DNA of 56,120 nucleotides from a virus (lineage: Duplodnaviria; Caudoviricetes). Shown piece by piece: positions 1-43,500 of the stretch. Under the pieces are notes generated by a model that saw only the letters and a list, made by a program, of their open reading frames with translations, did not search any database and had not been told where the DNA came from. The translations under genes were made by a program, and so were the position numbers. How positions within the stretch are numbered: position 1 is the stretch's first letter; each line of letters opens with the position of its first letter. The stretch covers positions 1 to 56,120 of the IMG/VR virus record IMGVR_UViG_3300046331_000690, one strand, 5' to 3'.

Positions 1-117
1 CAAAGGAAGATAGGCCAATTTAGAGTGCAACATATAAAATTTATTCTACGGGCAAAAGAATGGTATATGGAGGCATTGATTGATAGTAAGATTGAGTTTG
101 TGGGAGGGGAGGATTAA
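1..117 (+). CDS. 3' part of a 70-aa hypothetical protein spanning the window join (56025..56120 + 1..117)
   Basis: Manual translation gives MARIQLV...SFEYN|QRKIGQF...VGGED*. The TAA at 115-117 overlaps the AAC core of repeat R0. Confidence 0.75.
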   Translation, partial: QRKIGQFRVQHIKFILRAKEWYMEALIDSKIEFVGGED

Positions 118-238
118 CGCACAGGGCTTAACGCAGGTGTGGTATTAGATAGGTGATTTACAGCCCTTGTACTTGGCTTGGATATATATGCTGCCGATAG
201 CCTGATTGTCAAGCCACACTTGCGGTAAACCCAATGTT
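116..238. repeat. attC-like hairpin repeat R0
   Basis: AAC..GGGCTTAACGCAGGTGTGG...CCACACTTGCGGTAAACCC..GTT, 123 bp. Confidence 0.85.
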
Positions 239-266
239 GGCTGCTGTACGGTAAAAAAATAAAGAA

Positions 267-518
267 ATGACAAAAGAAAGTATCATAGAATTACAAAAGA
301 TTGATTGCAACTGTAATGATTGTAAACACCTTGTCCGTGATTTTGAAAAATATAAATTATTTGATGGTTTATATACAAATGAGAAGGGTCAGGTTACAAG
401 TCCATCACATCGTGTCAATTATGGTAATTGTCAAAAATTAAATAAGGCGGTATCGTTTATTCCGAATACCTGTCAATTAGAAACGCAAGGCTGCTTTGAA
501 CATCGGAGAGTAGTATAG
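267..518 (+). CDS. Cassette 1: Cys-rich hypothetical protein
   Basis: 83-aa ORF with a CNCNDC motif. Its stop lies in the cassette right end. Confidence 0.75.
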   Translation: MTKESIIELQKIDCNCNDCKHLVRDFEKYKLFDGLYTNEKGQVTSPSHRVNYGNCQKLNKAVSFIPNTCQLETQGCFEHRRVV

Positions 519-523
519 CGTAC

Positions 524-645
524 AACGCCTACGGCTTGGCGAAGTGGGGGAATTATACCCACAAAAGCCGATTAGAATTACTAATGTTTAATAACAGATA
601 AAAGATGATAGAAGCAGTCAGCCCCCATTTTGCCAAACCGATGTT
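524..645. repeat. attC-like hairpin repeat R1
   Basis: AAC..CGGCTTGGCGAAGTGGGGG...CCCCCATTTTGCCAAACCG.ATGTT, 122 bp. Confidence 0.85.
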
Positions 646-2008
646 ACCTGCTGGTGCGGTTGGTTTACGAGTACTTTCCTTATTCGATGGAATGAGCTGT
701 GGGCAACAAGCACTTGAAAGAATTGGTGTAAATGTTTTGGAATATTACGCAAGTGAAATTGATAAACACGCTATTGCAGTAACGATGCACAATTACCCAA
801 ATACAAAGCAATTAGGAAGCGTTATTGATGTGGATGGATATACACTACCAAAGATTGATTTATTGATTGGTGGAAGCCCTTGCCAAAGTTTTTCATTTGC
901 TGGCAAACGAAAAGGAATGAGTACAAAATGCGAAACAGAAATATTGACTTTAGAACACTATTTGGAATTGAAAAATGAAGGTTACGAATTTGAAGGGCAA
1001 AGCTATTTATTTTGGGAGTATATGAGATTGCTTAACGAAGTCAAACCAAAATACTTTTTACTTGAAAATGTACTGATGGGCGAAAAATGGGAAAAGATAT
1101 TGAGTAAAGCAATTGGAGTAAAACCAATTGAAATAAACTCTGCTTTAGTATCTGCTCAAAATCGAAGAAGATTATACTGGACAAATATTGGAATGCAACC
1201 AATGGGATTATTTGGAGATTTAGAAAACATAATACCGCAACCAAAAGACAAAGGTATTTTGTTAAAAGATATACTTGAAAGTGAAGTTGATGACAAATAT
1301 TATTTGAGCCAACAACGAATTGAAACAATGCTGAAAAGTGAAAGAAGTGTGCCTTATGTTGATGAAGAAACAAAGAAATTCAATTGCTTATTGGCTGTAT
1401 ATAATAAAATACCTACTGATGGGCAATATGTGGTACACAACACAATGCCACGAAGTAGCACAACTGGCAAAGGCGGTAGCGGACCACTAAGCCGAAATGA
1501 TGGTAAAACCTATTGCTTAGATACTGGAAGCACAAATGCAATTGAATTAGTTGGATGTATAAAGTTTGGCAGAACAGATGAGGCAAAGGAAATGAGAAAA
1601 GAAAGTATGAAAAATGGCAAAGATTATACACCATTTCAAGCCAAAGAAATAACTGGTATTGATTACGATAAAATGAATACGCTTACTACTGCAATAAATA
1701 AAGATAACCTGGTAATGCAATTAAATCCATCAACTGAAAGTAATGGATGCCAACCTTACCAACAAAATAGAATTTATGATACAGATGGAATTAGCCCCGC
1801 CTTAATGGCTCAAATGAGTTGTGGCACTCACGCCATAAAACACGAAAGAAAAATAAGAAGATTAACACCTTTAGAGTGTGAAAGACTGCAAACCGTTAAA
1901 TATGGATATACAAGTGTAGCTTCTGATAGTCAGCGATACAGAATGTTAGGTAATGGATGGACTGTTGATGTTATTGCTCACATATTATCTTACGGAGAAT
2001 GGTCGTAG
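641..2008 (+). CDS. Cassette 2: C5-cytosine DNA methyltransferase
   Basis: Motifs LSLFDG (I), GGSPCQ (IV), LENV (VI), QNRRR (VIII), RRLTPLECERLQ (IX) and LGNGW (X). The likely start is ATG 641 inside the repeat; the ORF track gives 605. Confidence 0.92.
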   Translation: MLPAGAVGLRVLSLFDGMSCGQQALERIGVNVLEYYASEIDKHAIAVTMHNYPNTKQLGSVIDVDGYTLPKIDLLIGGSPCQSFSFAGKRKGMSTKCETEILTLEHYLELKNEGYEFEGQSYLFWEYMRLLNEVKPKYFLLENVLMGEKWEKILSKAIGVKPIEINSALVSAQNRRRLYWTNIGMQPMGLFGDLENIIPQPKDKGILLKDILESEVDDKYYLSQQRIETMLKSERSVPYVDEETKKFNCLLAVYNKIPTDGQYVVHNTMPRSSTTGKGGSGPLSRNDGKTYCLDTGSTNAIELVGCIKFGRTDEAKEMRKESMKNGKDYTPFQAKEITGIDYDKMNTLTTAINKDNLVMQLNPSTESNGCQPYQQNRIYDTDGISPALMAQMSCGTHAIKHERKIRRLTPLECERLQTVKYGYTSVASDSQRYRMLGNGWTVDVIAHILSYGEWS

Positions 2009-2019
2009 CACTTGCAGGT

Positions 2020-2141
2020 AACGGTGGGCATATTACGCAGGTTTGGAGGCTTTGCAATCAGATCCAAACCAGCACTAAAGCCCGGCTCTGCAAGCTGACC
2101 AGGATATGACTTCCAGCCAAACTTGCGTAAATGCCGTTGTT
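2020..2141. repeat. attC-like hairpin repeat R2
   Basis: AAC..GGCAT[A]TTACGCAGGTTTGG...CCAAACTTGCGTAAATGCC..GTT, 122 bp, with one bulged A. Confidence 0.85.
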
Positions 2142-2195
2142 GTGTGCTGTTTTTCTTAGGGTTTTACAACTATCTTTAAAATAATTGTAAATAAA

Positions 2196-2231
2196 TTAGG
2201 AAAATACAATTTGACGGCATATATTTGTATT
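2196..2231 (+). promoter_or_regulatory. Putative Bacteroidota promoter inside cassette 3
   Basis: TTAG(2196-99)-N20-TATATTTG(2220-27), overlapped by the inverted repeat AATACAA/TTGTATT. Confidence 0.55.
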
Positions 2232-2246
2232 ACAAAAGCAAAAAAC

Positions 2247-2501
2247 ATGACAAAGACAATTTCACAATTACGCAAAGAAGCAAACAAAGCACCTAAGTAC
2301 GTTTTAAAAATGGACGGACTTGATTTATTTGTTGCCGACAAACAGGCTTTAACTGGCTGCAATATCACTGAAGATGTAAAGAAGGCTAAAATGTTTTCAG
2401 TTGGTTTTGATAATGAAGAAATGAAAGCTGGAGTATGGACGGCAGTTGCACAGTTAATGACTAATAACAAAGATGTAAAGTTTGAAGTAATGTATTTATG
2501 A
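2247..2501 (+). CDS. Cassette 3, gene 1: hypothetical protein
   Basis: ORF with ATG 2247 after an A-rich leader. Confidence 0.7.
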   Translation: MTKTISQLRKEANKAPKYVLKMDGLDLFVADKQALTGCNITEDVKKAKMFSVGFDNEEMKAGVWTAVAQLMTNNKDVKFEVMYL

Positions 2502-3169
2502 GAATAATAGTAGGATGCGAAGAAAGCGGCGAAGTACGTGATGCCTTTATAAAATTAGGGCATGATGCAATTAGCTGCGATTTAAAGCCATCAAGGAACG
2601 GCGGGCCACATTATCAGGGCAGCATCTTTGATATAGACTACTCTGATTTTGATTTGGCTATAATTCATCCACCATGCACTTACTTATGCGTTACTGCAAA
2701 TAAATGGCTTAAAGACCAACCTGCCAGAAAAAGCGGGGCATTAGTTGGAGCAGAAAGGCGGCAAGCCGTAAAAGAGGCACATGATTTTTTTATAGCCTGC
2801 TGGAAATTACCAGTTAAAAGAATGTGTATTGAAAACCCTGTAGGCGTAATGAGTTCATTATGGCGAAAGCCGGATCAAATCATACAACCGTGGCAATTTG
2901 GGCATAATGAACCAAAAAAAACCTGCCTTTGGCTGCGTGGCTTGCCACTATTAAAACACACTAAAATAATGGAACCGGAATATCATATAACAAAATCCGG
3001 GAAACGATTGCCTAAGTGGTATGCTTATGCTGATAAAAGCAAAGGGCAGGCACACAGGGCAGAAATTAGAAGCAAAACATTCACAGGCATTGCGGAAGCA
3101 ATGGCAAACCAATGGACAAATGAAAAGAAGATTATTTCACCTGTACTTGAAATCAACTTTGGAGCATAA
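2498..3169 (+). CDS. Cassette 3, gene 2: short phage C5-cytosine methyltransferase-like protein
   Basis: GCEESG (motif I-like), HPPCT (IV), IENP (VI), and C-terminal RSKTFTGIAEAMA. Confidence 0.75.
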   Translation: MRIIVGCEESGEVRDAFIKLGHDAISCDLKPSRNGGPHYQGSIFDIDYSDFDLAIIHPPCTYLCVTANKWLKDQPARKSGALVGAERRQAVKEAHDFFIACWKLPVKRMCIENPVGVMSSLWRKPDQIIQPWQFGHNEPKKTCLWLRGLPLLKHTKIMEPEYHITKSGKRLPKWYAYADKSKGQAHRAEIRSKTFTGIAEAMANQWTNEKKIISPVLEINFGA

Positions 3170-3341
3170 ATATTATGGCTCTTTAAAAGCGATTTTTATT
3201 GACACTACAAACCCGGATTTAGGAGTAAGCAAATTTACCCTGGACAGGTTTGATTTTGTCCAGCCCTACGAAAATGAAGTTTGTGTAATTCGTAAAGGCT
3301 TTATGCAGTCCACCGGCGATATTAGGACTGCTACCAAATAG
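3120..3341 (+). CDS. Cassette 3, gene 3: small hypothetical protein, possibly DNA-binding
   Basis: In-frame ATG 3120 within ORF 3021..3341. The stop lies in the cassette right end. Confidence 0.6.
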   Translation: MKRRLFHLYLKSTLEHKYYGSLKAIFIDTTNPDLGVSKFTLDRFDFVQPYENEVCVIRKGFMQSTGDIRTATK

Positions 3342-3346
3342 CACAC

Positions 3347-3469
3347 AACGGATTGGGGCTTGTAGCAGTAGTGGATCTATAGCACTACTGTTCAATACAC
3401 CACTAAAGCTGATTAGAAGTACACAGCTCAAAACTTGCACTTCTGCCCCTATTGCTACAAACCCTTGTT
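3347..3469. repeat. attC-like hairpin repeat R3
   Basis: AAC..GGGCTTGTAGCAGTAG...CTATTGCTACAAACCC.TTGTT, 123 bp. Confidence 0.85.
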
Positions 3470-3520
3470 AGCGGTAGTACGGTAAAATAAATAAGGGTGT
3501 AAAAATTAAAAACAGAAAAA

Positions 3521-3853
3521 ATGAAAAAAGCATTTATCAAATGGATGTCCAACCAAAACTGGATTTACAACTTAGCAGTAAAATTAATTGCTAACAGAAT
3601 TGTACACGGTCAAAATCAACTTACGCCTAAATATCTAATGGATAGAGGATGGGTTGAAGAAGAAGGATTTTTTGTTGAGTCAAACATTAAAGACCGTGAT
3701 AAGATTTGGATAAAGTTTGAAAACCACTATTTCAGAATTTGGCACGGCAAAGAAAGAACCTTTATCGGTTTAGAAAGCAAAGTTGAATGGTTTGAAAACT
3801 ACTATCTACTTGCTCACGGTGATAATGGTCGCTACCAACTTGCAGGTGTGTAG
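3521..3853 (+). CDS. Cassette 4: hypothetical protein
   Basis: 110-aa ORF that fills the cassette. Confidence 0.75.
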   Translation: MKKAFIKWMSNQNWIYNLAVKLIANRIVHGQNQLTPKYLMDRGWVEEEGFFVESNIKDRDKIWIKFENHYFRIWHGKERTFIGLESKVEWFENYYLLAHGDNGRYQLAGV

Positions 3854-3863
3854 TATTACCGCT

Positions 3864-3991
3864 AACGAACAGGGCTTGGCTGCACGTACCGGAATTTGAA
3901 ATACTGAATTTCAGCCCTTGTACAAAAGCCCGGTTATGTACCGAAGTTGATAGTCAAATTGTCAAGCCGGTATTGCGCCAAACCCCATGTA
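3864..3991. repeat. attC-like hairpin repeat R4 (right core GTA)
   Basis: AAC..GGGCTTGGC..TACCGG...CCGGTA..GCCAAACCC..GTA, 128 bp. Shares CAGCCCTTGTAC and TTGTCAAGCC with R0. Confidence 0.8.
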
Positions 3992-4051
3992 CTACGTAGT
4001 ATTTTCTTGTGCTGCGGAGCATTTTTAAGTAACAATTTAAAAACTATAACA

Positions 4052-4447
4052 ATGATAACAAGAGATTTATTCAGACTTCCTTTCGGAAACCACAAGTTAA
4101 CAGATGGGATTTATACTTTCTTGCTTCAAAAAGAAAATTCCGATTATCTCCGAAAGACTACTTACAGCATAAGGCAATACGACTCTTTATCGGGAGGTTC
4201 GGTTACATTTTATGAAGATATTGACGATGTTTTTGATAACACAAGCCGATATAAGCAAAAGGTTTTAAAATATAGAGTATTCATTACGGGAATGTCTTTT
4301 GGTGGTAGGGATGATTTATGGAATGTACTTTACAACTTAAAATACGTTCCTAAGTCCTCTTATAAAGAGTGGTTAAAAAAAGTTGAAGGAATAATGTCCA
4401 TCCAAATTGAAAAACAAATGTGTGGCGTTGGCGAAAATATTACGTAG
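4052..4447 (+). CDS. Cassette 5: hypothetical protein
   Basis: Likely ATG at 4052; the upstream part of ORF 3947 is repeat sequence. Confidence 0.7.
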   Translation: MITRDLFRLPFGNHKLTDGIYTFLLQKENSDYLRKTTYSIRQYDSLSGGSVTFYEDIDDVFDNTSRYKQKVLKYRVFITGMSFGGRDDLWNVLYNLKYVPKSSYKEWLKKVEGIMSIQIEKQMCGVGENIT

Positions 4448-4571
4448 TACGGTTCGGGGCTTTAAGAAGTTGGGGTTTCAAAGCTCAAATGTTCGTTTAA
4501 GCACTACTGTTGATTAGAATTACAAAAGTTGGGGTTTATCACTTCTGCCCCAATTTCTTAAACCCCTTGTT
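4448..4571. repeat. attC-like hairpin repeat R5 (left core TAC)
   Basis: TAC..GGGGCTTTAAGAAGTTGGGG...CCCCAATTTCTTAAACCCC.TTGTT, 124 bp. Shares GCACTACTGTT, GATTAGAA and CACTTCTGCCCC with R3. Confidence 0.85.
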
Positions 4572-4626
4572 ATGCCATCGTTGCGGTTTTCAAGGCAGGA
4601 AGTTTAACTTAAAAACAATTTAAAAA

Positions 4627-5343
4627 ATGAAATTAATAGCACTTGGCGACACTCACGGCAGAACAGATTGGAAGCAAATAGTTTCTAATACTGAATTTGA
4701 TAAAGTAATATTTATTGGCGACTACTTTGATACTCACGAAGATATTACACCTGAACAGCAGAAGTCAAATTTTGAAGATCTGATTAAATACAAAATAGCC
4801 AATATGGATAAAGTTGTTTTACTTTTTGGCAACCACGACTATCATTATTTAAAAACTGTAAATGAAACTTATAGTGGTTTTCAAGAATGGCACAGGACAG
4901 ATATAGCAGAGATGTTACACAAAGCATTAGGTGCTGATTTAATGCAAATGTGCCTAATTGATGGTAATTACATTTTTAGCCACGCAGGTGTAACAAAAAC
5001 TTGGTTGAAAAATACTGGTTATACAGGCGAAGACCCATTAGAATTATTTATAAATGATTTGTTTAAATATCAGCCATTGGCTTTTAGGTTTACAAGTGGT
5101 GTTAATCATTCTCCTTATGGTGATGATATTTGCCAAACGCCAATATGGGTTCGCCCACAAAGTTTGTATGCAGATTGTTTGGATAATTTTATTCAAGTTG
5201 TTGGGCATACTACACAAAAGCAATTAAAGATTATAGACGACAAGATAGTATTGATTGATACAATCGGAATGTCTGGTCAATTTCTTTGTATCACTGATGG
5301 TGAAATGTCCGTTTTGGAACTATCACGTAGCAATGGGGCATAA
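4627..5343 (+). CDS. Cassette 6: calcineurin-like metallophosphoesterase
   Basis: GDTHG, GDYFD, GNHD, SHAG and GHT motifs. Confidence 0.9.
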   Translation: MKLIALGDTHGRTDWKQIVSNTEFDKVIFIGDYFDTHEDITPEQQKSNFEDLIKYKIANMDKVVLLFGNHDYHYLKTVNETYSGFQEWHRTDIAEMLHKALGADLMQMCLIDGNYIFSHAGVTKTWLKNTGYTGEDPLELFINDLFKYQPLAFRFTSGVNHSPYGDDICQTPIWVRPQSLYADCLDNFIQVVGHTTQKQLKIIDDKIVLIDTIGMSGQFLCITDGEMSVLELSRSNGA

Positions 5344-5472
5344 CGCTGGGCATATTGCGAAGTTGGGGTAATAGAATTACTGTCGCTTGGTAGCTTATTG
5401 CACAACTGCTCAACAAAGATTTAAACTCCGATTGCGGTTCCGTCAAGCCCCAATTTAGCAAATGCCTATGTT
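5342..5472. repeat. attC-like hairpin repeat R6
   Basis: AAC..GGCAT[A]TTGCGAAGTTGGGG...CCCCAATTTAGCAAATGCC..GTT, 131 bp, with the same bulged A as R2. Confidence 0.85.
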
Positions 5473-5512
5473 GGCTGCTGCTATTAGGGTTCTCAAAATA
5501 ATGTCCTAAATA

Positions 5513-5544
5513 TTTGGTGTAACCAATAAGTTACACTACATTTG
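5513..5544 (+). promoter_or_regulatory. Bacteroidota promoter with a palindromic operator in cassette 7
   Basis: TTTG(5513-16)-N20-TACATTTG(5537-44). The spacer is GTGTAAC-caataa-GTTACAC. Confidence 0.7.
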
Positions 5545-5558
5545 ATAAAACATTTATT

Positions 5559-5807
5559 ATGGCAACAGTAACAAAAAACGCAAAAGAACTGAGTTTTAAA
5601 CAAATAACTATTGGTGAATTGCAACACGCTGATTTTTTTTCTCTTAATGGTAAATCATTTTTCATCTTTTCAAGAGTGGAAGAAATCGGATTAGGATTAG
5701 TTTCTATTCATTACCTATCAACGGTGAAATGGCAATCGTATGACAGGGTAATCAGGAATGATAAAAAGGTGTTTGTTGCACCATTAGGGAGGCATTATGA
5801 AGGATAA
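5559..5807 (+). CDS. Cassette 7, gene 1: hypothetical protein
   Basis: 82-aa ORF downstream of the promoter. Confidence 0.7.
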   Translation: MATVTKNAKELSFKQITIGELQHADFFSLNGKSFFIFSRVEEIGLGLVSIHYLSTVKWQSYDRVIRNDKKVFVAPLGRHYEG

Positions 5808-5994
5808 AATATTTAACTACATAAATGCTGCTGCTTTCTTTTCTGAATACTTGCCACACATTAAAAGCTATAAACACAAATTACGTGGCAAAAATGGTAG
5901 AGGAAACATTGTTGACTTTACAGATAAAGAAAAAAAGGAAATAAACGCTGCCTTGAAAAAACTCTTTAAAGAATTAGGGGGTGTCGCAAAGTAG
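5797..5994 (+). CDS. Cassette 7, gene 2: small DNA-binding protein (DUF5053-like)
   Basis: KLRGKNGRGNIVDFTDKEKKEINAAL resembles the DUF5053 C-terminal pattern (recalled, not searched). Confidence 0.5.
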   Translation: MKDKIFNYINAAAFFSEYLPHIKSYKHKLRGKNGRGNIVDFTDKEKKEINAALKKLFKELGGVAK

Positions 5995-6040
5995 CAGCCA
6001 ACATCTTTTTTAATGCACTCTCTTTAAAAATCAACATTTT
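5990..6040. other. Putative attI-like primary recombination site
   Basis: The last cassette ends in AAC (6000-02) with no hairpin after it, 38 bp before the recombinase ATG. Confidence 0.55.
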
Positions 6041-6922
6041 ATGAATAGGAAAAATGAATTATTACAGCAATTTAAAAATGAATTGAGTTTGAGAAATTAT
6101 GCTATGAATAGTATAGATACTTACAGTGGGTATCTATCACAGTTTTTTGAAGCAATGAAAGGCAAACCAAAGCCATTGCAAATTGAGGAGATTAAACAAT
6201 TTTTGTTATCCATCACCAACATGAATACCAGGGCAATGTTTGTAAATAGCATCCGTAATTTTTATAGCTACATTTTAAAAACGCCTTTGAGTTTAGATGA
6301 TATTCCTTATCCACGTAAGACAAGTTATTTGCCACAAATACTAAGCATACAAGAGGTAGATCGAATGATGAAATGTGTTGTAAATATTAAGCATAAAGCC
6401 ATTTTGCAAACCATGTATAGTTGCGCTTTGCGTATAAGTGAAGTGCCAGAAATTGAATGCAATACTAATATATGTCACTTGGATAGCAGCAGAAAAACAT
6501 TGCTGGTGAAAGGTGCCAAGGGTTTTAAAGATCGGTATGTACCAATACCTATTCCTACCATTATATTGCTTCGCAATTACAGAATAGCAGATAATAAAGG
6601 AAAGTGGTTATTTATGGGGCAAAATCAACAAAAATATTCTGTGAGAAGTATTCAGCAGATTTTTCACCGTGCAAAAGAAGCTGCACATATTGCCAAAAAA
6701 GTAACGCCACATTCATTAAGGCATAGCCGCCTTACTCACCTATGCGAAGCTGGGATGGATATATACAAGCTAAAGGAATTTGCCGGGCACAACAATATTA
6801 AAACAACTGAAATTTATTTGCACCTCAGTAAATCATCACTGGTAAATAATACCGAGCTGGCAGACCTGATCATTGCACAGTCATTGCATAACAGTGAATT
6901 ATTAATAGAATTAGGAAATTAA
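6041..6922 (+). CDS. Tyrosine recombinase, integron-integrase-like/XerD-like
   Basis: N-terminal SAM-like segment (LRNYAMNSIDTY) and catalytic motifs LRISE, KGFKDR, HSLRHS, AGH, TTEIY. The IntI-specific insertion is absent. Confidence 0.93.
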   Translation: MNRKNELLQQFKNELSLRNYAMNSIDTYSGYLSQFFEAMKGKPKPLQIEEIKQFLLSITNMNTRAMFVNSIRNFYSYILKTPLSLDDIPYPRKTSYLPQILSIQEVDRMMKCVVNIKHKAILQTMYSCALRISEVPEIECNTNICHLDSSRKTLLVKGAKGFKDRYVPIPIPTIILLRNYRIADNKGKWLFMGQNQQKYSVRSIQQIFHRAKEAAHIAKKVTPHSLRHSRLTHLCEAGMDIYKLKEFAGHNNIKTTEIYLHLSKSSLVNNTELADLIIAQSLHNSELLIELGN

Positions 6923-6923
6923 A

Positions 6924-7364
6924 ATGAGAACACCCTTCACTTTAGCTGATCTTAAAAAAACGCCTTGTGCGGCAATTAATCAGCACCTCTTTGTTGCGCC
7001 GGTTAAGAAAAAAGAAAAGAGCCTTGGCAAGCAAAAAACATGGATTCAGTTTAGATTACTCCAGTTTGCAGAAAGCAACAAACTGGAGCTTAAAGAAGAA
7101 CATAGATTTCACGATGAGCGCAAGTGGCGTTTCGATTGGGCAATACCTGAGCTGCATATAGCATTTGAATACGAAGGTATCTTTTCAGCTAAAAGCCGCC
7201 ATACTACAGCCAAAGGTTTTACAGGTGATGCAGAAAAATATAACGCTGCTCAATCTGCAGGATGGATAGTTTACAGATACACTGCAATAAACTACTTAGA
7301 TTTGGTAACTGATCTAAATAATTTGCCCGGTATTATTCAAAAAGAAAAAGATTTATTCAAATAG
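6924..7364 (+). CDS. PD-(D/E)XK endonuclease (DUF559/Vsr-like)
   Basis: EHRFH..RKWRFDWA...AFEYEG...RH...D.EKYN.AQ..GW.VYR. Confidence 0.75.
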   Translation: MRTPFTLADLKKTPCAAINQHLFVAPVKKKEKSLGKQKTWIQFRLLQFAESNKLELKEEHRFHDERKWRFDWAIPELHIAFEYEGIFSAKSRHTTAKGFTGDAEKYNAAQSAGWIVYRYTAINYLDLVTDLNNLPGIIQKEKDLFK

Positions 7365-7378
7365 AGTAACTTTGACTT

Positions 7379-7933
7379 ATGGCCAAAAAACAATTGACCG
7401 ATTTAAAACAGGATCCGAGCAACTTTAATCAGCATTCTCAATTTGGTATGGGCCTACTGGAAAAGTCAATAAGGAAGTTTGGTTTTGTAGAAGCTGGCCT
7501 TATTAGTGAAGATGATGTTATCTGCTCAGGAAATGCCAGGCAGGAGACCGCAGTTAGTATTGGAATGGAAGATGTGCAGATAATTGATATAGATGGTAGT
7601 AAACCCGTTTATCTACGAAAAAAAGGACTAAAAAGCGGCTCACAGGAATTTAAAGAACTTGGATTGGCTTTAAATGCTGTAGGTAAAGCTAATGTGGTAT
7701 TGGATGCTGAATTGATTGAAGCCGAATTGGGGGATGCTGTTTGTGAGGAGTGGGGAATTGAAAAAGAATTAAACTATAGTAGTAAAAATAAAGAAATTGA
7801 TTTAGATGAAAATGAACGTTTTACTATTGAATTAAATTTTACTGCTGATAATTTTTTCAGCATTAAAGAGGCAATTGCTGCCAAAGGGATAACTGCTGAA
7901 TCTATTCTACTTAAAGCTTTGAATATTGACTAA
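7379..7933 (+). CDS. ParB-like N-terminal domain protein
   Basis: LKQDPSNFNQH..LEKSIRKFGF..ICSGNAR pattern; sits directly before a methyltransferase. Confidence 0.65.
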   Translation: MAKKQLTDLKQDPSNFNQHSQFGMGLLEKSIRKFGFVEAGLISEDDVICSGNARQETAVSIGMEDVQIIDIDGSKPVYLRKKGLKSGSQEFKELGLALNAVGKANVVLDAELIEAELGDAVCEEWGIEKELNYSSKNKEIDLDENERFTIELNFTADNFFSIKEAIAAKGITAESILLKALNID

Positions 7934-8984
7934 ACATAAATTTCCATATAACTGGAACTTAGCAGACGGCTATCCTGCTAAAGGAATTGAACCGAATAAT
8001 TTAAATGTATTCGGAACTTTTATTTGCGGTGGTGGCTCAACTATGGGTTATAAATTAGCAGGCTTCAATCATTTAGGCGGAGTTGAAATAGATAAAAAAG
8101 TTGCAGCAGTTTATAAACTTAATCATAATCCAAAGCACCTTTTTATTGAAGATTTAAGAGCATTTAACCAAAGAAATGATTTGCCAGATCAATTATTTGA
8201 ATTGGATATTTTAGATGGTTCTCCACCATGCAGCACTTTTTCTATGGCTGGAAATAGAGAAAAAGACTGGGGTAAAGAAAAAATGTTTAGAGAGGGGCAG
8301 GCTATGCAAACATTGGATGACCTTGTTTTTGTGTACACTGACACTATTTTAAAACTAAGGCCAAAGGTTGCAATACTTGAAAATGTTAAAGGATTGATTC
8401 AGGCAAATGCCAGAGCCTATCTGCATCAAATAAAAAACCACCTTCAACTGGCCGGATATTCAGTTCAGGTTTTTTGTCTAAATGCAGCATCTATGGGAGT
8501 ACCACAAAAAAGAGAAAGAGTATTTTTAATTGCAAGGCAAACCACCTTCAACTGGCCGGATATTCAGTTCAGGTTTTTTGAAAAACCAATATTATTTGGA
8601 GAATTATCAAAATTAAACCCAAATGGAAAATTCAAAGAAATTATTGACTCTTGCAAAGATTTATGGAAAAATGCAAAACAAGGCTGCGGTCTTAATACAG
8701 TGCATCCAAATGGAAGCTCGTTTTTTTCTAAACGAAAGGTATCAGATAAAGAAGTTTGTGGAACTTTAACAGCACATGCAGATGAGGATTTTATGCACTC
8801 AACTGAGTTTAGGTGCTTAAATGAAGATGAGTTTAAGTTTATCGGAAGTTATCCAAAAGATTATAATTTTATTAATATTAATCCTGCTTATCTAATAGGC
8901 ATGTCAGTTCCTCCCGTAATGACAGCACAAATAGCACATCAGATTTATTTGCAATGGTTTAAAACGGAGGTAGAAAATGCGTAA
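7926..8984 (+). CDS. C5-cytosine DNA methyltransferase
   Basis: FICGGG, GSPPCS, LENV, QKRER and GMSVPP motifs; TTG start. Confidence 0.9.
   Translation: MTKHKFPYNWNLADGYPAKGIEPNNLNVFGTFICGGGSTMGYKLAGFNHLGGVEIDKKVAAVYKLNHNPKHLFIEDLRAFNQRNDLPDQLFELDILDGSPPCSTFSMAGNREKDWGKEKMFREGQAMQTLDDLVFVYTDTILKLRPKVAILENVKGLIQANARAYLHQIKNHLQLAGYSVQVFCLNAASMGVPQKRERVFLIARQTTFNWPDIQFRFFEKPILFGELSKLNPNGKFKEIIDSCKDLWKNAKQGCGLNTVHPNGSSFFSKRKVSDKEVCGTLTAHADEDFMHSTEFRCLNEDEFKFIGSYPKDYNFININPAYLIGMSVPPVMTAQIAHQIYLQWFKTEVENA
8435..8580. repeat. Exact 42-bp direct repeat (8435-8476 and 8539-8580)
   Basis: AAACCACCTTCAACTGGCCGGATATTCAGTTCAGGTTTTTTG occurs twice. Confidence 0.9.
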
Positions 8985-9468
8985 ACCAGACAAACAAACC
9001 ATTATAGATTTTATCATTAGTTGCCTTGAAAAAGGAGAGCAACGTGGTAACATATTGGTAAAAACTGGTAAAAAGTGGGGAACTAGTAAATCTGCCTTTG
9101 ATAGATGGCTAAAAATAGCAAAGCAGCAGTTAACTGATAAGCAGCAGGCCATTAAAAAGGAACTGGAAGCTATTGATAAAGCAGCAGCTATTGAAGCTCG
9201 TAAAAAGGCTATAATGACCGCAGATGAAAGGAAAGAATATTTGACTAAAATCATAAATGGAGAAGTAAAATTTAAAAAGCCATTTTTTGTAAAAGGTAAA
9301 ATAATGGAATACCCTGCTGAACCGGATGTAGCTGATAGGATGAAAGCAATATCTGAATTGAACAAAATGGAGGGTGACTATGCAGAAACAGCTATTAGGT
9401 TAAAAGGAGATGCTCTTTCTCCTTTAGAAATCTTCATAAATGGCAAACCAGCAGGTGCCGGTAGTTAA
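8977..9468 (+). CDS. terS: Terminase small subunit
   Basis: N-terminal HTH, DRMKAISELNKMEG motif, and position directly upstream of TerL. Confidence 0.75.
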   Translation: MRKPDKQTIIDFIISCLEKGEQRGNILVKTGKKWGTSKSAFDRWLKIAKQQLTDKQQAIKKELEAIDKAAAIEARKKAIMTADERKEYLTKIINGEVKFKKPFFVKGKIMEYPAEPDVADRMKAISELNKMEGDYAETAIRLKGDALSPLEIFINGKPAGAGS

Positions 9469-10792
9469 TATAAATATTGACTATGACAGTGTATTTCTAC
9501 CTGTTTACAAGCCGCTCAGAAATACTGATGCCCGGTTAAAATTTGTATATGGTGGCCGGGATAGCGGTAAGAGCCGGGATAGAGCCCAACAAAAAATAAT
9601 TGATTGCCTTTCTAAAAAGTATTTCCGATGCATCCTGATTAAAAAAACTGCAAATTCAATCAAGGATAGCCAGTGGCAGTTGATAAAAGATATTTGTGAG
9701 GAATGGAATATTGATCACCTGTTCCAGTTTAATACCAGCCCATTAGAGATTAAGTGTAAAGTAAATGGAAACAAATTCATTTGCCGGGGTATGGATGATC
9801 CTGCAAAGATTAAATCTATCAATGAGCCTTCAGATGCCTGGATAGAGGAAGGCAATCAACTTACTTTAGAAGACTGGATTTATATTATAACCACTCTCCG
9901 GAGCAATAGAGGACCAGTGAGTATTGATATGACCTTCAATACTGAAACTAAGGGAGATTATGAAGACTTCTGGCTGTATAAGGAGTATTTTAGCCATACT
10001 ACAGAAAAGAGTTTTACCCATACCAAAACGATCAGCTTTGGCAATGAAAAGGTAGATCTTAAATACATTGCCGTACATAGTACCTACCATGATAATCCAC
10101 ATGTTAGCATTGAAAGAAAGGCCTATCATGAAGGTTTGCAAACCTTAAATTTTTACTGGTACCGGGTATTTACTCAAGGCCTTTGGGGAAATGAAGAAAA
10201 CAATAGTCCATGGTTATTTGCATTTGACCGGGCAAAACATGTAAGTGCTGTAGAGCTATTTGCCAAGCGATCAGAGATACTGTATATAAGTTTTGACTTT
10301 AACCGGAATCCGCATGCGTGCACCATCATTCAATGGTATGATGAAACAGTATTTATTATTGAAGTGCTTAAAATACCGAATGTAGGTACTGAGGGTATCT
10401 GTGATATTGCAAAAGAGAAATATCCTGGCTTTTTATATGTTGTGACTGGTGACTATTCCGGTGATACTGTTTCTTCCCTGTTTAAAGAGCAGGTTACCAA
10501 TTATACCATCATTAAAAAATCGCTCTCTCTTAATGATGGACAGGTAAAGATTTCACCAAACCCAAGACTGGAGAAAAACCAAACGCTTGTAAATACCATT
10601 TTTAGTAAGTATAAAATATTGATGTGCCCGGTAAAGGCAAAGCCAGCCATTTATGATGCAGAAAAAGTAAATACGAGGGCAGATGGAACAATTGTAAAAG
10701 ATGATAGAAATGATCCTACACAACAGGCCGATGTACTGGATACTCTTCGTTATTGGTTCAACCAGTTTATGGGATGGTTTATAAAAAAATAA
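9440..10792 (+). CDS. terL: Terminase large subunit (PBSX-like)
   Basis: Walker A YGGRDSGKS, Walker B WIEE, TFN coupling motif, nuclease SFDFN and D..D.LRY. Confidence 0.93.
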   Translation: MANQQVPVVNINIDYDSVFLPVYKPLRNTDARLKFVYGGRDSGKSRDRAQQKIIDCLSKKYFRCILIKKTANSIKDSQWQLIKDICEEWNIDHLFQFNTSPLEIKCKVNGNKFICRGMDDPAKIKSINEPSDAWIEEGNQLTLEDWIYIITTLRSNRGPVSIDMTFNTETKGDYEDFWLYKEYFSHTTEKSFTHTKTISFGNEKVDLKYIAVHSTYHDNPHVSIERKAYHEGLQTLNFYWYRVFTQGLWGNEENNSPWLFAFDRAKHVSAVELFAKRSEILYISFDFNRNPHACTIIQWYDETVFIIEVLKIPNVGTEGICDIAKEKYPGFLYVVTGDYSGDTVSSLFKEQVTNYTIIKKSLSLNDGQVKISPNPRLEKNQTLVNTIFSKYKILMCPVKAKPAIYDAEKVNTRADGTIVKDDRNDPTQQADVLDTLRYWFNQFMGWFIKK

Positions 10793-40751: not shown

Positions 40752-40988
40752 ATGCGCTATATGTTCACTGCTATTATTGCAATTCCATCCTACCATATTG
40801 GTTTTTTAGACATTTTTGAGGTTGACAACAATACATATTTTGCAAACCCTAAAAACTCATGGGAAAGCCTACACTATCCTCCAGAGTATGTACAGTTTTA
40901 CTTTTCAAAAATTGGTTCAACATGGAAAACTGAACCACATGTACTTCAGAATATTTTAGAACAAGTTATTGAGCAAGGGGGGTTATGA
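40752..40988 (+). CDS. Hypothetical protein
   Basis: 78-aa ORF converging on the integrase. Confidence 0.5.
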   Translation: MRYMFTAIIAIPSYHIGFLDIFEVDNNTYFANPKNSWESLHYPPEYVQFYFSKIGSTWKTEPHVLQNILEQVIEQGGL

Positions 40989-42200
40989 AAAACTATTTGC
41001 CACCTTTTTAAGCCGTTGGTGTTGCCTTTCTTTTTCTCCATGTGCATAGTGCGATAAAGTTATTACAGGTGTTGTATGGCCAGCCATATCAGCTGCAGAC
41101 TGAATATCCAAAGCCGCTGCTATTTCATCTAAATTAGAATGCTTTAAACTATAGAAATCAGCAGAAATGTTAAGTCCACCTTTTTCAACTGTAGCTTTTA
41201 CGTGTGTCCTCCAGCGCCGGGTAATTTGCTCTGGCCTGATCTGTTTTACTCCTGGTTTAAGGCCAACACTAAATATAAAATCTTCTGGTTTTGCATCTTT
41301 CAGCAATTCTTCCCATAGGGGGAGTATATTATCTTTAATCGTTCTTAGCTGTTCATTTGTTTGTTTACCTTTTTTTACTAATAATTTGTATTGCTGTTTC
41401 TCAAGATAAATATCTTTTCTTTGAACCCTTAATAATTCAGTTTCCCGGCTGCCAGAATGAAAGAAAATTTGCATAAAACGCCAAAAGGAATAAGTTTTTA
41501 TTTTTAAATGATTATTTATTTTGGTTCTTTCTTCAGCTGTAAGGGTCTGTCTTATCCTTTTTATCACTTTCTTCTTTTTTAAATCTTTCACAGGATTTAT
41601 TTCTGTAGCCTCCATTTCTACCAATTCAGAGAATAGTATCATTAAGTATGATCTAAATTTATTGTAACGGTCATTGCTGAACTTAGGATTGATAATGGCC
41701 ACCTGCTCCAACAGTGCTTTAATATGCTTTCTTCTTACATCTCCAATTGTTAAAGCAGTAATATGCATTTGTCTGGCAGCGGCCTCTAATGCTTTAATTA
41801 CACATTTGATATCCTCAGTAGTATGTGGTTCAACTTTCAATTTTGGTAAAACCTCCCAAAAAGCTTCTATAAATTTTGTACCTGGATGAATCTCGTGGTT
41901 CAATACTACCGGTTTAATAAATTCTCCAGTAATAGGGTTGTATCCTTCATATTGAAGCATCATCAATAGCTCATCCATTACTACCTGTACAGCAGATCTT
42001 CTTTCCTGTAATGTTTTAAAGCGATTGATTTTGCTTTTCAGAATTTTTAAACAACCCTTTTTATATTTTTCTTTGAAAGCAGGGTCATGAAAATAGTATT
42101 GAATGTACCATTCCTTTTTTACAGAAGCAGATTGTGTTTTCCAGTTTTTCGGGAAAACAGTAGGTTCGCTGCAGGTGCAGCCATTTGGTAGTTGTAGCAT
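40983..42200 (-). CDS. int: Prophage tyrosine integrase
   Basis: GSRETE, KKGK, YSLKH, AGH and HY motifs; adjacent to attP. Confidence 0.92.
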   Translation of the reverse strand: MLQLPNGCTCSEPTVFPKNWKTQSASVKKEWYIQYYFHDPAFKEKYKKGCLKILKSKINRFKTLQERRSAVQVVMDELLMMLQYEGYNPITGEFIKPVVLNHEIHPGTKFIEAFWEVLPKLKVEPHTTEDIKCVIKALEAAARQMHITALTIGDVRRKHIKALLEQVAIINPKFSNDRYNKFRSYLMILFSELVEMEATEINPVKDLKKKKVIKRIRQTLTAEERTKINNHLKIKTYSFWRFMQIFFHSGSRETELLRVQRKDIYLEKQQYKLLVKKGKQTNEQLRTIKDNILPLWEELLKDAKPEDFIFSVGLKPGVKQIRPEQITRRWRTHVKATVEKGGLNISADFYSLKHSNLDEIAAALDIQSAADMAGHTTPVITLSHYAHGEKERQHQRLKKVANSFS

Positions 42201-42203
42201 AAA

Positions 42204-42452
42204 AGTATTAACCTTTTTATTAACTTTTTATGCTACCGTGCAAGGGAAACTAAAACTTAAATTAGCTGAAAACCTTATCAGATAAGGCTTTCAGCTTTGT
42301 ATCGGGGAGCAGACTTGAACTGCCGACCTTCGGGTTATGAATCCCCGTTTTAAATGTTATATTTTTTGAAACCCTTGCTGGTAGCGGTTTTTAATTTTGT
42401 GATTTTAGTCCGAAACGTCCAATTTTTATACAGTATTAACTTTTTTATTAAC
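42204..42452. other. attP region: tRNA(CAT) 3'-half core flanked by arm-type repeats
   Basis: Minus strand 42298-42344 reads GGATTCATAACCCGAAGGTCGGCAGTTCAAGTCTGCTCCCCGATACA. 21-bp direct repeats at 42204-24 and 42432-52. Confidence 0.85.
42264..42296 (-). terminator. Hairpin just downstream of the tRNA fragment
   Basis: AGCTGAAAACCTTATC/GATAAGGCTTTCAGCT. Confidence 0.6.
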
Positions 42453-42457
42453 CGTAA

Positions 42458-42850
42458 TTACTTCTTCTTTTTGCTTAGTAATTCAATATTCTGCTCCATT
42501 CTTACCATGTCTTTTTCAAGGCCTGATATTCTTTCTTTAAGGCTTTTTACCTGACTTTCTAAATTTGAAAACATCATCATCTCTCCTTGGCCAGTTAATA
42601 ACCAGGTTGGAGAAACTTTATAAAAATGCAATAGTCTTCCAACTGCTTCAAGGGTAAATGAATTTTTATTTAAAGAGTCCTGTGAATTTCTTATCCGGGT
42701 AATATTCGTACTTGCCATGCCGATTGTTTCTCCAATTGCCTTATCTGTTACCTTTCCTTTTGATCTATCTCGAAGAATTGAATCGATCGCTTGTAAAAAT
42801 CTTGCATTGATCTCGTCTGTGAAATGATATTTGTAGGTTATTGGTTCCAT
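42458..42850 (-). CDS. HTH regulator
   Basis: HTH-like segment, VSPTWLLTGQGEM motif, and a coiled coil. Confidence 0.7.
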   Translation of the reverse strand: MEPITYKYHFTDEINARFLQAIDSILRDRSKGKVTDKAIGETIGMASTNITRIRNSQDSLNKNSFTLEAVGRLLHFYKVSPTWLLTGQGEMMMFSNLESQVKSLKERISGLEKDMVRMEQNIELLSKKKK

Positions 42851-42881
42851 TATTATAAATTATTTTTTGGTACACCATTTA

Positions 42882-43499
42882 TTAAAATAAAATTCCAACA
42901 GAGGCATTAAAATAACCAGTATTATTATCACTATTATTATCCCTTGTAATTGTATGAAATCCACTGCCATTTAAATTTTTAATAGTTTGAATGGTGGTTA
43001 TGGAGGTATTGAATTGAATGTATCTATATCCAACAGAAGTATAGAATCCAAGATTTTGTTTAGATTTAATTGGTAGTATTGCTCCTAAATTGAAACCTGC
43101 AAAAGCTTGACCCTTAGTATTTGATTTAGTGGTTATACCCTCTCCGTTTCCAAGATTAAGCGAATAATTTAATTTAAAATTATAATTATAGGTGCCAAGG
43201 TTTAAAGATAAATAAACAGGAAGCTTGTCTATATATAAATACTTTCTAAAATCTATATATATTGGATAGGCAGTTGATGACGTTCCATTACTGGAAAATG
43301 AAATTAATTCTAAACCTAAACCTATCCCCATAGAACGGTTTCCATTTTTATTATTAGAAGATAATCCCATAAAAAATTTACCTCCAACGTTTTTTGCATC
43401 CTCTAGTTGTAAACCAACTTGAAAAGATGCGTTGCTTTTATTTTTAGACTGGCTAATACCGAATAATGGCATTAATAGTATTATAATTAACTTTTTCAT
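42882..43499 (-). CDS. Outer-membrane beta-barrel protein (lysogenic conversion)
   Basis: Signal peptide, alternating beta strands, terminal ...ASVGILF. Confidence 0.75.
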   Translation of the reverse strand: MKKLIIILLMPLFGISQSKNKSNASFQVGLQLEDAKNVGGKFFMGLSSNNKNGNRSMGIGLGLELISFSSNGTSSTAYPIYIDFRKYLYIDKLPVYLSLNLGTYNYNFKLNYSLNLGNGEGITTKSNTKGQAFAGFNLGAILPIKSKQNLGFYTSVGYRYIQFNTSITTIQTIKNLNGSGFHTITRDNNSDNNTGYFNASVGILF

Positions 43500-43500
43500 T

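Follow-up and report, generated by a model that had tools for sequence, protein, structure and literature searches.

The virus record IMGVR_UViG_3300046331_000690 of IMG/VR was analyzed whole (56,120 bases, hereafter the window). It belongs to a virus of the Caudoviricetes and carries, on its plus strand, seven hairpin repeats with their genes, followed by a gene for a tyrosine recombinase of 293 amino acids (aa). Our results suggest that this run is an integron-like gene-capture platform residing on a temperate phage of Bacteroidota, and on the sequence evidence we hold this reading to be likely. How the platform catalyzes recombination, which strand it uses, in which direction it grows and how it is expressed are what we infer from its arrangement. 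According to the initial annotation of this DNA, a repeat stands 5' of each gene and the genes point towards the recombinase. This description agrees with our results, as seven hairpins were found and all the open reading frames (ORFs) of the cassettes lie on the plus strand, like the recombinase gene.

The whole window was scanned with two covariance models, R1 and R2. Both detected exactly seven plus strand repeats between positions 116 and 5472, each running from AAC to GTT over 122-131 nt and each located 5' of plus strand genes. They score 75-101 bits with R1 and 65-104 bits with R2, and neither model found a further plus strand repeat elsewhere in the window. At the same seven sites the minus strand reaches 18-30 bits only. 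The elements of the array and of its end beside the recombinase are as follows:

116-238, plus strand: repeat r1 (R1, 85 bits; R2, 65 bits), heading cassette 1 (118-525)
524-645, plus strand: repeat r2 (R1, 101 bits; R2, 104 bits), heading cassette 2 (526-2021)
2020-2141, plus strand: repeat r3 (R1 and R2), heading cassette 3 (2022-3348)
3347-3469, plus strand: repeat r4 (R1 and R2), heading cassette 4 (3349-3865)
3864-3991, plus strand: repeat r5 (R1 and R2), with GTA as its 3' end, heading cassette 5 (3866-4449)
4448-4571, plus strand: repeat r6 (R1 and R2), with TAC as its 5' end, heading cassette 6 (4450-5343)
5342-5472, plus strand: repeat r7 (R1 and R2), heading cassette 7 (5344-6001)
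5989-6002, plus strand: terminal half-site AAGTAGCAGCCAAC (inverted repeat I19), the right-hand box of cassette 7, 11/12 complementary to 5470-5481
6003-6040, plus strand: attI-like site, AAC|N10-(R)CG(A/C)A...AAATCAA up to the recombinase ATG
6041-6922, plus strand: tyrosine recombinase, 293 aa, XerA/IntI-like (PF13495 and PF00589)

The C of the 5' AAC (TAC in r6) falls at 118, 526, 2022, 3349, 3866, 4450 and 5344, exactly where the initial annotation had placed the seven cassette boundaries.

Each repeat folds into one long imperfect hairpin with an outer stem of 3-4 bp, a stem of ~14 bp and a variable loop of 60-70 nt. Relatives of the array were gathered through the recombinase and two cassette genes, and their repeats were located with the covariance models (these loci are numbered with an L). 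For 12 copies, 7 from the window and 5 from L002, RNAalifold gave 17 pairs with compensatory changes in 12. In a larger set of 46 repeats, drawn from the window and 19 other loci (20 sources in all), 94.9% of the 780 stem cells are paired in an alignment that was fitted to the model, which favours structure, against 61.6 ± 1.3% in 500 shuffles, none of which reached the observed value. When the partners were slid along the alignment, 40-47% of the cells were paired. Changes on both sides were found in 15 of the 17 stem pairs of the 46 repeats and, together with the excess of pairing over the shuffles, they indicate that the hairpin is under selection. Column by column, the repeats are ~56% identical to one another. 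A scan of window positions 1-8000 against Rfam 15 at E ≤ 1 returned no match. The arms of r3 are near-identical to L002 3515-3637, and the genes upstream of these two repeats differ. Lone high-scoring hairpins also occur several kb 3' of the recombinase, outside the main array, in L007 (8563-8686, 80 bits) and L009 (3405-3528, 68 bits).

The ends of successive repeats are related across the genes that separate them. About 12 nt following each repeat (GTT and a stretch that we call the b-box) are complementary to about 12 nt preceding the next one (the a-box and AAC). In the window, b-box n pairs with a-box n+1 at 8, 10, 11, 11, 11, 8 and 11 of 12 positions, whereas the two ends of one and the same repeat pair at only 3-6 of 12. 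The matches add up to 70 of 84, compared to a mean of 45 over assignments, and a single permutation out of 5040 reaches 70. All six cassettes of L002 present the same relation (10, 10, 11, 11, 10 and 10 of 12). Variants at one end are mirrored at the other: the GTAC core of cassette 5 at 3989-3992 has its counterpart in GTAC at 4447-4450, and a noncoding cassette of L002 has the variant core GTAAG/CTTAC, with both ends covarying. Homologous methyltransferase cassettes of L005 and L014 (66% aa identity) have different boxes that yet match within each cassette. A T.G position recurs in the a-box/b-box consensus. Circle-type junctions, in which the a-box of the next repeat precedes a repeat, fold 3-12 kcal/mol better than the integrated sites in all seven cases. 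The split R box of integron cassettes shows the same end-to-end relation. Such pairing would be expected only if both ends of one gene-bearing unit become joined at some stage.

No repeat follows the last gene (stop at 5994), as the initial annotation had noted. We found there only AGTAGCAGCCAAC (5990-6002), which is the half-site, then 38 nt and the recombinase ATG at 6041. The attI-like site formed by these 38 nt is present in each of the 17 loci with a recombinase at least 49% identical; the a-box in front of it ends in AAC (TAC in two), and in 15 of these loci the terminal C lies 37-40 nt ahead of the recombinase ATG. The attI-like site and the 5' arms of the repeats have the register AAC-N10-13-GCGAA(G) in common. 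The site thus resembles one half of a hairpin in duplex form, which would be expected for an attI-like partner.

Sequence variation is found at this junction among close relatives. L002, L003, L004 and L020 are 99.58-99.96% identical pairwise over 4.2-10.9 kb downstream, and upstream they carry three unrelated sequences that begin 2-8 nt before the terminal C. L005, L006 and L007 (89-93% identical) likewise diverge upstream, from position -3 or -4. The last 174 nt of the proximal cassette of L002 are 100% identical to the start of L007, in a block that ends at AAC, while the backbones are ~80% identical; in L007, three more cassettes stand between this segment and the recombinase. These comparisons point to cassette turnover at the recombinase-proximal junction and to cassette transfer between lineages. 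They would fit the proposal of the initial annotation that the newest cassette lies next to the recombinase, in that near-identical phages differ precisely there, while the order of events is not proven. L003 and L004 were also considered as empty sites. This reading was withdrawn because the upstream gene, which is 82% identical to its L002 counterpart against 99.9% for the downstream DNA, may itself be a cassette; both contigs end 120 nt upstream and are unsafe as empty sites.

The recombinase ranks closest to XerA among the NCBIfam models (180.4 bits, cut-off 220), followed by XerC (143.5, cut-off 335) and XerD (133.2, cut-off 330), all below cut-off, and the IntI model TIGR02249 gives 131 bits in two stretches (cut-off 265). 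The best PDB matches are archaeal XerA 4a8e (E = 1.2e-28, residues 5-283) and 5hxy, then VchIntIA 2a3v. In the alignment with 2a3v, residues 11-167 of the query align with 9-167 and residues 204-262 with 247-305, leaving 36 aa where IntI has 79, and the IntI-specific insert is absent. Because of this absence the enzyme is, by alignment, not a classical IntI, and the comparison with a classical intI arrangement made by the initial annotation has to be corrected on this point. The catalytic residues R131, K160, H224, R227, H250 and Y259 are invariant in 28 family members and align with those of XerA and IntI4. At E ≤ 1e-30 the recombinase has at least 270 homologues, nearly all of them metagenome proteins, and many are on contigs of 1-5 kb, which is what we would expect if assemblies break at arrays. 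A metagenome scan with the recombinase as query yielded 2 loci only. We also considered the loci that have 590 nt or more of upstream sequence and in which the best tblastn segment of the recombinase is at least 50% identical. Leaving L021 aside, there are 13 of them, and each has one or more repeats on the recombinase strand. Apart from the module itself, the backbones that surround it have almost no proteins in common with the window, and the module is therefore portable.

To locate the recombining side we compared 28 loci, including the window, with one another by blastn and kept all blocks between different loci that are 150 nt or longer and at least 78% identical. Away from the stored edges, 87 distinct block ends were counted. 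Of these, 24 (12 left and 12 right ends) come to within 8 nt of the C in a 5' AAC; this AAC belongs to a repeat in 18 cases and is the terminal one, next to the recombinase, in 6. The 5' AAC zones make up 1.24% of the sequence (binomial p ~1e-25, for ends that are not independent of each other). By comparison, 2 ends fall at the 3' GTT, 5 inside repeats and 56 elsewhere, mostly in genes and backbones. This distribution favours AA|C as the crossover point, as the initial annotation had predicted.

Shared cassettes give information on what moves as a unit. Cassette 2 (526-2021) recurs in three other arrays:

L058, matching window 502-2023: 87% identity
L059, matching window 521-1549 and 1842-2023: 92% and 96% identity
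L116, matching window 533-2028: 81% identity

In all three arrays the block consists of the upstream hairpin and the gene and ends at the next AAC. What comes after it differs, being an r6-like repeat (L058), an attI-like sequence (L059) or a short repeat (L116). L005 and L014 share a hairpin and methyltransferase from AAC onwards; in L014 this is the last unit, with no repeat after it. A shorter block (L002 1259-1468 with L013 9749-9962) ends at TAC|. The rule of the initial annotation, that a cassette is a repeat plus its downstream gene, is thus well supported by these comparisons and holds in most of the informative cases, not in all: cassette 2 and the L005/L014 pair follow it and a block shared with L049, which spans GTT to AAC only, does not. 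Repeats co-segregating with the upstream gene, which the initial annotation had named as evidence against its model, are not what the homologues show, even if the rule is not universal.

The hairpins also have a strand preference. Among the 46 repeats, stem mismatches are one-sided (77 G.T against 3 A.C cells), and one G.T pair is kept in 45 of them. In the window the strand favoured by G.T is the sense strand, which would be compatible with a role as RNA. Two Bacteroidota metagenome-assembled genome (MAG) contigs, one of 591 kb, present a mirror layout:

L024 9707-12842 and L025 9707-13000: recombinase (375-aa ORF), attI-like site on the minus strand (GGTGGTAAC|N10-GCGAA), plus strand gene, minus strand hairpin (70 bits)
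L024 11016-12701, plus strand: gene for a protein with PLD-like and helicase-associated (HA) domains

Their recombinases are 41-42% identical to that of the window and match IntI in two stretches (213 bits, cut-off 265), and their a- and b-boxes, read by eye, match at 13 of 14 positions. Here the repeats lie opposite the gene strand, and the G.T pairs are kept in 3 of 3 repeats. Since the polarity in L024 and L025 follows the recombination sites and not transcription, a role as DNA is favoured over a role as RNA. The window and these contigs hold one system in two mirror layouts, the second of which has the classical polarity of gene and site with a co-directional recombinase.

In the mechanism that we propose, the mobile unit would be [hairpin body - GTT + b-box - spacer - gene(s) - a-box + AA|C]. 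The 293-aa recombinase would cut the gene-sense strand at the 5' AAC of the hairpin, and this strand would be exchanged with the AAC of a second hairpin, or with the one in the attI-like site, located 38 nt before the recombinase's own start codon. Upon excision, the a-box of the unit would join its own hairpin body; the stem, extended by ~12 bp as the a- and b-boxes pair, would then form a complete attC-like site. Cassettes inserted at the attI-like site would stack up between the stop codon of the backbone gene and the recombinase gene. The substrate is probably the folded gene-sense strand, as the strand-specific G.T pairs suggest, comparable to the folded bottom strand in integrons. The genes are inverted relative to the polarity of the sites, with both genes and recombinase reading in the direction of the phage's long plus strand gene run.

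Several observations weigh against this reading. The insert with which IntI acts on folded attC is missing from the recombinase, and folding energy gives no consistent strand preference, the plus strand being the more stable in 4 of 7 repeats. Within the window, b-box 1 matches a-box 8 (10/12) better than a-box 2 (8/12). With L049 the phosphatase cassette has in common only the stretch between the GTT of r6 and the following AAC (4568-5345, 91%), and the hairpin body therefore did not travel with it; in L058 an r6-like hairpin and its leader stand before a different gene. Distant homologous cassettes have no consistent excess of upstream-repeat over downstream-repeat likeness: among 20 homologous pairs, upstream-repeat likeness exceeds the background only in the two closest (0.88 and 0.79, 95th percentile 0.75). 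In L021, whose recombinase is 75% identical, the recombinase gene is preceded by an a-box and the attI-like site, but the upstream 1.9 kb, which include a PhoH-like gene, contain no hairpin; this contig, of 2.6 kb and low coverage, may be an empty platform and is a mere candidate analogue of the empty site that the initial annotation predicted. Neither a circle nor an excision joint was observed in public contigs, which are too short to reveal one. In these data, four independent runs contain 59-91% of the sampled words, in short contigs that break inside repeats. The contigs show alternative neighbours, with loose ends before 515 and behind 645, 3477 and 3488, and one joint leads from 3867 to 530 with three foreign letters between; in these contigs a circle and another array order are indistinguishable.

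Arrays with no recombinase in sight count against the reading as well. L059, L063, L077, L080 and L116 have repeats, and tblastn on their stored flanks found no recombinase homologue. The same search of loci L049-L117 found none, an empty result that shows little. A profile search of the whole records of L116 (rated 100% complete), L077, L063, L080 and L056, the last with repeats near a distant phosphatase homologue, gave no recombinase hit either, which again shows little; the L059 record lay outside that search. These arrays would be comparable to clusters of attC sites lacking integron integrases (CALINs), and they imply action in trans or decay. The window is of another kind, because its recombinase adjoins the array. 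In L116 (record G005, 3884-6749), a methyltransferase cassette with its hairpin has its gene split into several ORFs, so that this locus is either a decayed array or an error-prone assembly.

We weighed the gene-capture platform against four other explanations. The repeats could be regulatory or processing elements of an early transcript, or modules like the promoter early stem-loops (PeSL) of T4-type phages; homologous recombination between them would shuffle the genes, and the recombinase would serve lysogeny or dimer resolution. Such a role would suit repeats that lie 5' of genes on the sense strand with G.U-compatible pairs, r3-type and r7-type repeats that travel with a conserved promoter-like leader, the r6-like repeat and leader joined to another gene in L058, the arrays with no recombinase nearby and the ParB-like gene after the recombinase. 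It explains poorly why breakpoints pile up on one 3-nt landmark and not across the conserved arms, why the a- and b-boxes covary across whole genes, which a local RNA element does not need, and why the attI-like site copies the register of the repeat arms at a fixed distance from the recombinase gene. The strand-specific features opposite the gene strand in L024 and L025, the lack of an Rfam match in window 1-8000 and the phage's own lysogeny integrase also speak against it, and we consider it unlikely. We think it somewhat less probable still that the mobile units are genes with inverted ends of 12-14 nt (GTT+b...a+AAC), moved by an enzyme not encoded here or by a recombinase acting in trans (from the host or a co-infecting phage), the hairpins being mere targets or spacers. 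The L049/window block bounded by GTT and AAC, the cassette family of L006, L009, L012 and L017, with conserved ends and different bodies on either side, and the arrays with no recombinase in cis are what one would expect in this case. The hairpin bodies, though, are under strong structural selection and usually move with the downstream gene, and the recombinase is tightly linked to arrays and the attI-like site across very different backbones.

With classical polarity, a cassette would be a gene plus its downstream repeat, with the crossover G|TT at the 3' side and r1 as a distant insertion site. The complementarity of the a- and b-boxes fits this equally well, the L049/window block starts at GTT, and in two distant pairs the downstream repeats are alike at 0.76 and 0.78 (95th percentile 0.75). 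Against it stand the 24 block ends at the 5' AAC compared to 2 at the 3' GTT, the last unit, which ends in a conserved site by the recombinase and has no repeat body after it, and the methyltransferase cassette, which keeps its upstream repeat and changes the downstream one in three of three arrays. Identical backbones, moreover, diverge at AAC|attI, and we regard classical polarity as very improbable. We give even less credence to an assembly artefact, in which the array order would be a chimera made by the repeats. Short public contigs do break in repeats and continue into other neighbours, but repeats of ~56% identity are too diverged to collapse, and the four runs mentioned above are independent. 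Contigs with zero differences span 118, 526 and 6002 (the two that span 526 end at 553), one contig with four differences spans 5344, and the same architecture occurs in more than 20 independent contigs and in the isolate Leef_1.

This isolate, Polaribacter phage Leef_1 (L118, MT732473.1), is in culture, as is its host, and encodes a recombinase 32.5% identical to that of the window; its array is at about 25.9-28.1 kb of MT732473.1. With R2, hairpins were detected at positions 7449-7570 (E = 7e-5) and 7811-7930 (E = 3e-4) of its locus, upstream of the annotated integrase and on the same strand. By eye, the a- and b-boxes match (GTTGGCAGTAGT and ATTACTGCCAAC), and the integrase is preceded by a terminal ...GCTAAC|N11-ACGCAC. 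Within the Leef_1 locus (6800-9000), some units seem cut down to mini-hairpins, for example around 8375-8600. The paper on Leef takes this integrase as a sign of temperate potential and, in the parts available to us, makes no mention of integrons (PMC8776804). For another Polaribacter phage, P12002L, a CALIN with methyltransferases has been reported, one attC of which was recombined by IntI1 (PMC9892861, seen in part). In this phage our model gave weak hits only; on the gene strand, 5 of the 13 (12-26 bits) are placed within or beside gaps next to genes for a methyltransferase or Mom. We put at about even the chance of a broader statement, that Bacteroidota phages including Leef_1 own an integron-type capture system in which a short XerA/IntI-like enzyme, devoid of the additional IntI domain, recombines one folded strand of a 120-nt hairpin with an attI-like site next to its own start codon, trading anti-restriction methyltransferase cassettes between unrelated phages in two mirror layouts.

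The proposed platform has much in common with integrons. In both, the gene for a tyrosine recombinase adjoins a primary site, and cassettes are arrayed with imperfect hairpin sites of ~105-190 nt that end in AAC and GTT and keep structure over sequence. Neighbouring cassettes each carry a part of the outer box of a site, which can be reconstituted, the crossover lies at the AAC of one particular strand, and the minus strand order is recombinase, attI, cassettes. An attI-type site at which variation is concentrated and a full set of catalytic residues are likewise shared. The repeats resemble attC by these features and not by a classical attC model. Differences concern the window recombinase, which has no IntI-specific insert and scores below the IntI cut-off, and the window genes, which are inverted to site polarity, with the hairpin 5' of the gene, and read towards the recombinase with no Pc-type arrangement apparent. 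The window platform furthermore lies within a phage gene run, and its paired outer box is ~12 bp, not 7. Two defining tests of an integron, the IntI insert and gene/attC polarity, thus give a negative answer.

Treponema-type integrons reportedly have their integrase, a true IntI, in the same orientation as the cassettes. They share with the window the co-directional recombinase and cassette genes and are close to the layout of L024 and L025, whereas the window array lies upstream of the recombinase and not downstream. CTX phage and integrative mobile elements exploiting Xer (IMEX) use host XerC/D and chromosomal dif, which act on folded single-stranded phage DNA, and the whole phage integrates. 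A Xer-type, Xer-sized recombinase would here also act on a hairpin-folded strand paired with a duplex site, but the enzyme of the window is encoded by the phage and the cargo is arrayed gene cassettes. XerA, XerC and XerD themselves give the best sequence and structure matches, with 4a8e aligned end to end; the recombinase differs from them in scoring under every curated cut-off and in being phage-borne and linked to hairpin arrays and an attI-like site, at which no 28-bp dif-type palindrome is apparent.

Part of the integron features used above is found in section 3.4 of Qi et al. (2023, PMC9892861). The phage CALINs of that study, in the portions available, have phage-borne attC-type sites with methyltransferase cassettes, P12002L included, in arrays with no integron integrase. 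In contrast to our repeats, they were picked up by classical models of attC and interpreted as pieces of bacterial integrons, and the same portions describe neither a dedicated Xer-like recombinase nor a reversed geometry. The DUF1874 motif occurs in consecutive intergenic regions at 5' untranslated region positions and was suspected of being an unusual attC by Weinberg et al. (2017, PMC5737381, in part), who note the lack of an integrase at the 5' end of the runs. As far as that text goes, the structured motif in consecutive intergenic regions and its 5' position relative to genes are common to both systems; the DUF1874 motif is multistem, compared to the single long hairpin described here, and our recombinase lies at the 3' end of the run. 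Rfam gave no DUF1874 match, if the motif is in release 15, in window 1-8000 at E ≤ 1. A literature search that lay outside subscription journals and supplements found no published phage platform with a Xer-like recombinase, hairpins 5' of genes and reversed polarity; Tables S1 and S2 of Qi et al. (PMC9892861) may list phages of this type. Smyshlyaev et al. (2021, PMC8138268) and Escudero et al. (2016, PMC4792948), both seen in part, also belong to the near literature.

The cassettes of the window contain the following genes:

267-518, plus strand: cassette 1 gene, 83 aa, Cys-rich, no family match
641-2008, plus strand: cassette 2 gene, C-5 cytosine DNA methyltransferase (PF00145, E = 7.7e-40)
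2220-3341, plus strand: cassette 3 content, with the motif TATATTTG (2220-2227) and an ORF at 2247-2501 (84 aa)
2498-3169, plus strand: cassette 3 DNA methyltransferase (phrog_757, E = 1.3e-61)
3174-3341, plus strand: last ORF of cassette 3, 55 aa
3521-3853, plus strand: cassette 4 gene, 110 aa, no family match
4052-4447, plus strand: cassette 5 gene, 131 aa, no family match
4627-5343, plus strand: cassette 6 gene, calcineurin-like metallophosphoesterase (PF00149, E = 7.4e-12), its TAA overlapping the next AAC
5537-5994, plus strand: cassette 7 content, with the motif TACATTTG (5537-5544) and an ORF at 5559-5807 (82 aa)
5797-5994, plus strand: last ORF of cassette 7, 65 aa, DUF5053

The methyltransferase of cassette 2 probably starts at ATG 641, at the 3' end of r2, and not at 605, because the listed ORF 605-2008 overlaps r2. 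Genes end against the a-box, and their stop codons often overlap the a-box or AAC itself. The window array encodes 2 methyltransferases; of nine proteins tested from the cassettes of other phage arrays, six proved to be DNA methyltransferases and one has an HD domain. The cargo appears to consist mostly of orphan DNA methyltransferases, and the array would serve as a swappable anti-restriction toolkit.

Some cassettes of related arrays are of other types. A noncoding cassette (no ORF of at least 60 aa), the one with core GTAAG/CTTAC, is 76% conserved between L002 (1308-1467) and L013 (9797-9962), whose recombinases are each only 50-75% identical to that of the window; it could encode a small RNA or a peptide. 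Another family is found at L006 1686-4037, L009 11-1023, L012 6461-8310 and L017 8431-9541. Its first and last 85-183 nt are 88-98% identical, and the length of its middle varies from ~0.8 to 2.1 kb. A small basic protein is often encoded directly before the attI-like site (L002 3967-4164, L007 2302-2583, L021 1727-1894). These three are homologous (39-42% identity), that of L021 has no hairpin upstream, and in the window the DUF5053 gene (5797-5994) takes this place. The small protein might be an accessory DNA-binding factor of the recombinase.

The initial annotation had ascribed transcription of the array to the upstream early operon. On the plus strand of the array, TAnnTTTG, which we take to be a promoter-like consensus, occurs twice only, 20 and 15 nt before the start codons of cassettes 3 and 7. 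With this motif in 2 of 7 cassettes, supply from the upstream operon alone is not assured; the other five presumably depend on read-through. Genome-wide, TAnnTTTG is depleted (52 found, 90 ± 10 expected, all 100 shuffles at 52 or more), which suggests selection against stray promoter-like motifs. Sigma-70 promoters, whose consensus is ill-suited to Bacteroidota, are not enriched (16 found, 25.8 expected), nor are terminators (4 found, 5.0 expected). Public runs labelled as RNA contain 5-10% of the sampled words.

The source record is the whole virus record and is rated 100% complete by CheckV. It behaves as a closed circle, since an ORF from ATG 56027 stays open across its ends, with no stop, and ends after 70 aa at TAA 115-117. 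Nearly all the long ORFs of the window are on the plus strand, and the array sits between replication and packaging genes, with these landmarks:

1-117, plus strand: 3' end of a backbone ORF, its TAA (115-117) overlapping the first AAC (116-118)
9440-10792: large terminase
40983-44253, minus strand: lysogeny module with a 405-aa integrase (phrog_1) and CI-like repressors
51850-54648: helicase

The covariance-model scan found no repeat 5' of the backbone ORF that ends at 117, and for the gene that precedes the array (55400-56047) IMG/VR contains no relative. As a separate 405-aa lysogeny integrase is present, the 293-aa enzyme is a second recombinase; it is neither the sole integrase nor located within the lysogeny module beside a repressor. 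A gene with a ParB-like nuclease domain and a third DNA methyltransferase lie directly 3' of the recombinase, outside the array (7379-8984). Within the backbone C5 methyltransferase ORF (7926-8984), two identical 42-nt direct repeats (8435-8476 and 8539-8580) are 104 nt apart. The phage is a temperate one from freshwater, with a host among the Bacteroidota, probably of the Chitinophagaceae. These hosts are indicated by recombinase relatives at ~50% identity in Ferruginibacter and Sediminibacterium MAG contigs that carry arrays.

Integrons are regarded as bacterial and, recently, also archaeal devices defined by IntI, and the cases in phages have so far been read as borrowed fragments. Here a coherent platform recurs in very different backbones, and its arrays come from contigs of freshwater, wastewater and marine origin, from MAG contigs of Chitinophagaceae and from one isolate. 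Its recombinase lacks a domain thought essential for attC recombination and its gene orientation is reversed, so that it lets one ask how hairpin-site recombination evolved from Xer-type enzymes. If the reading is true, cassette capture through single-stranded DNA hairpins arose, or survived, outside the IntI lineage, and the "integrase" genes on which the temperate label of such phages relies encode cassette recombinases. To infer lysogeny from any "integrase" match may be unsafe in flavophages (PMC8776804, in the part available). A compact recombinase with structured sites would, if active, be a possible tool. For the phages themselves, the platform would offer a concrete mechanism for the rapid exchange of methyltransferases.

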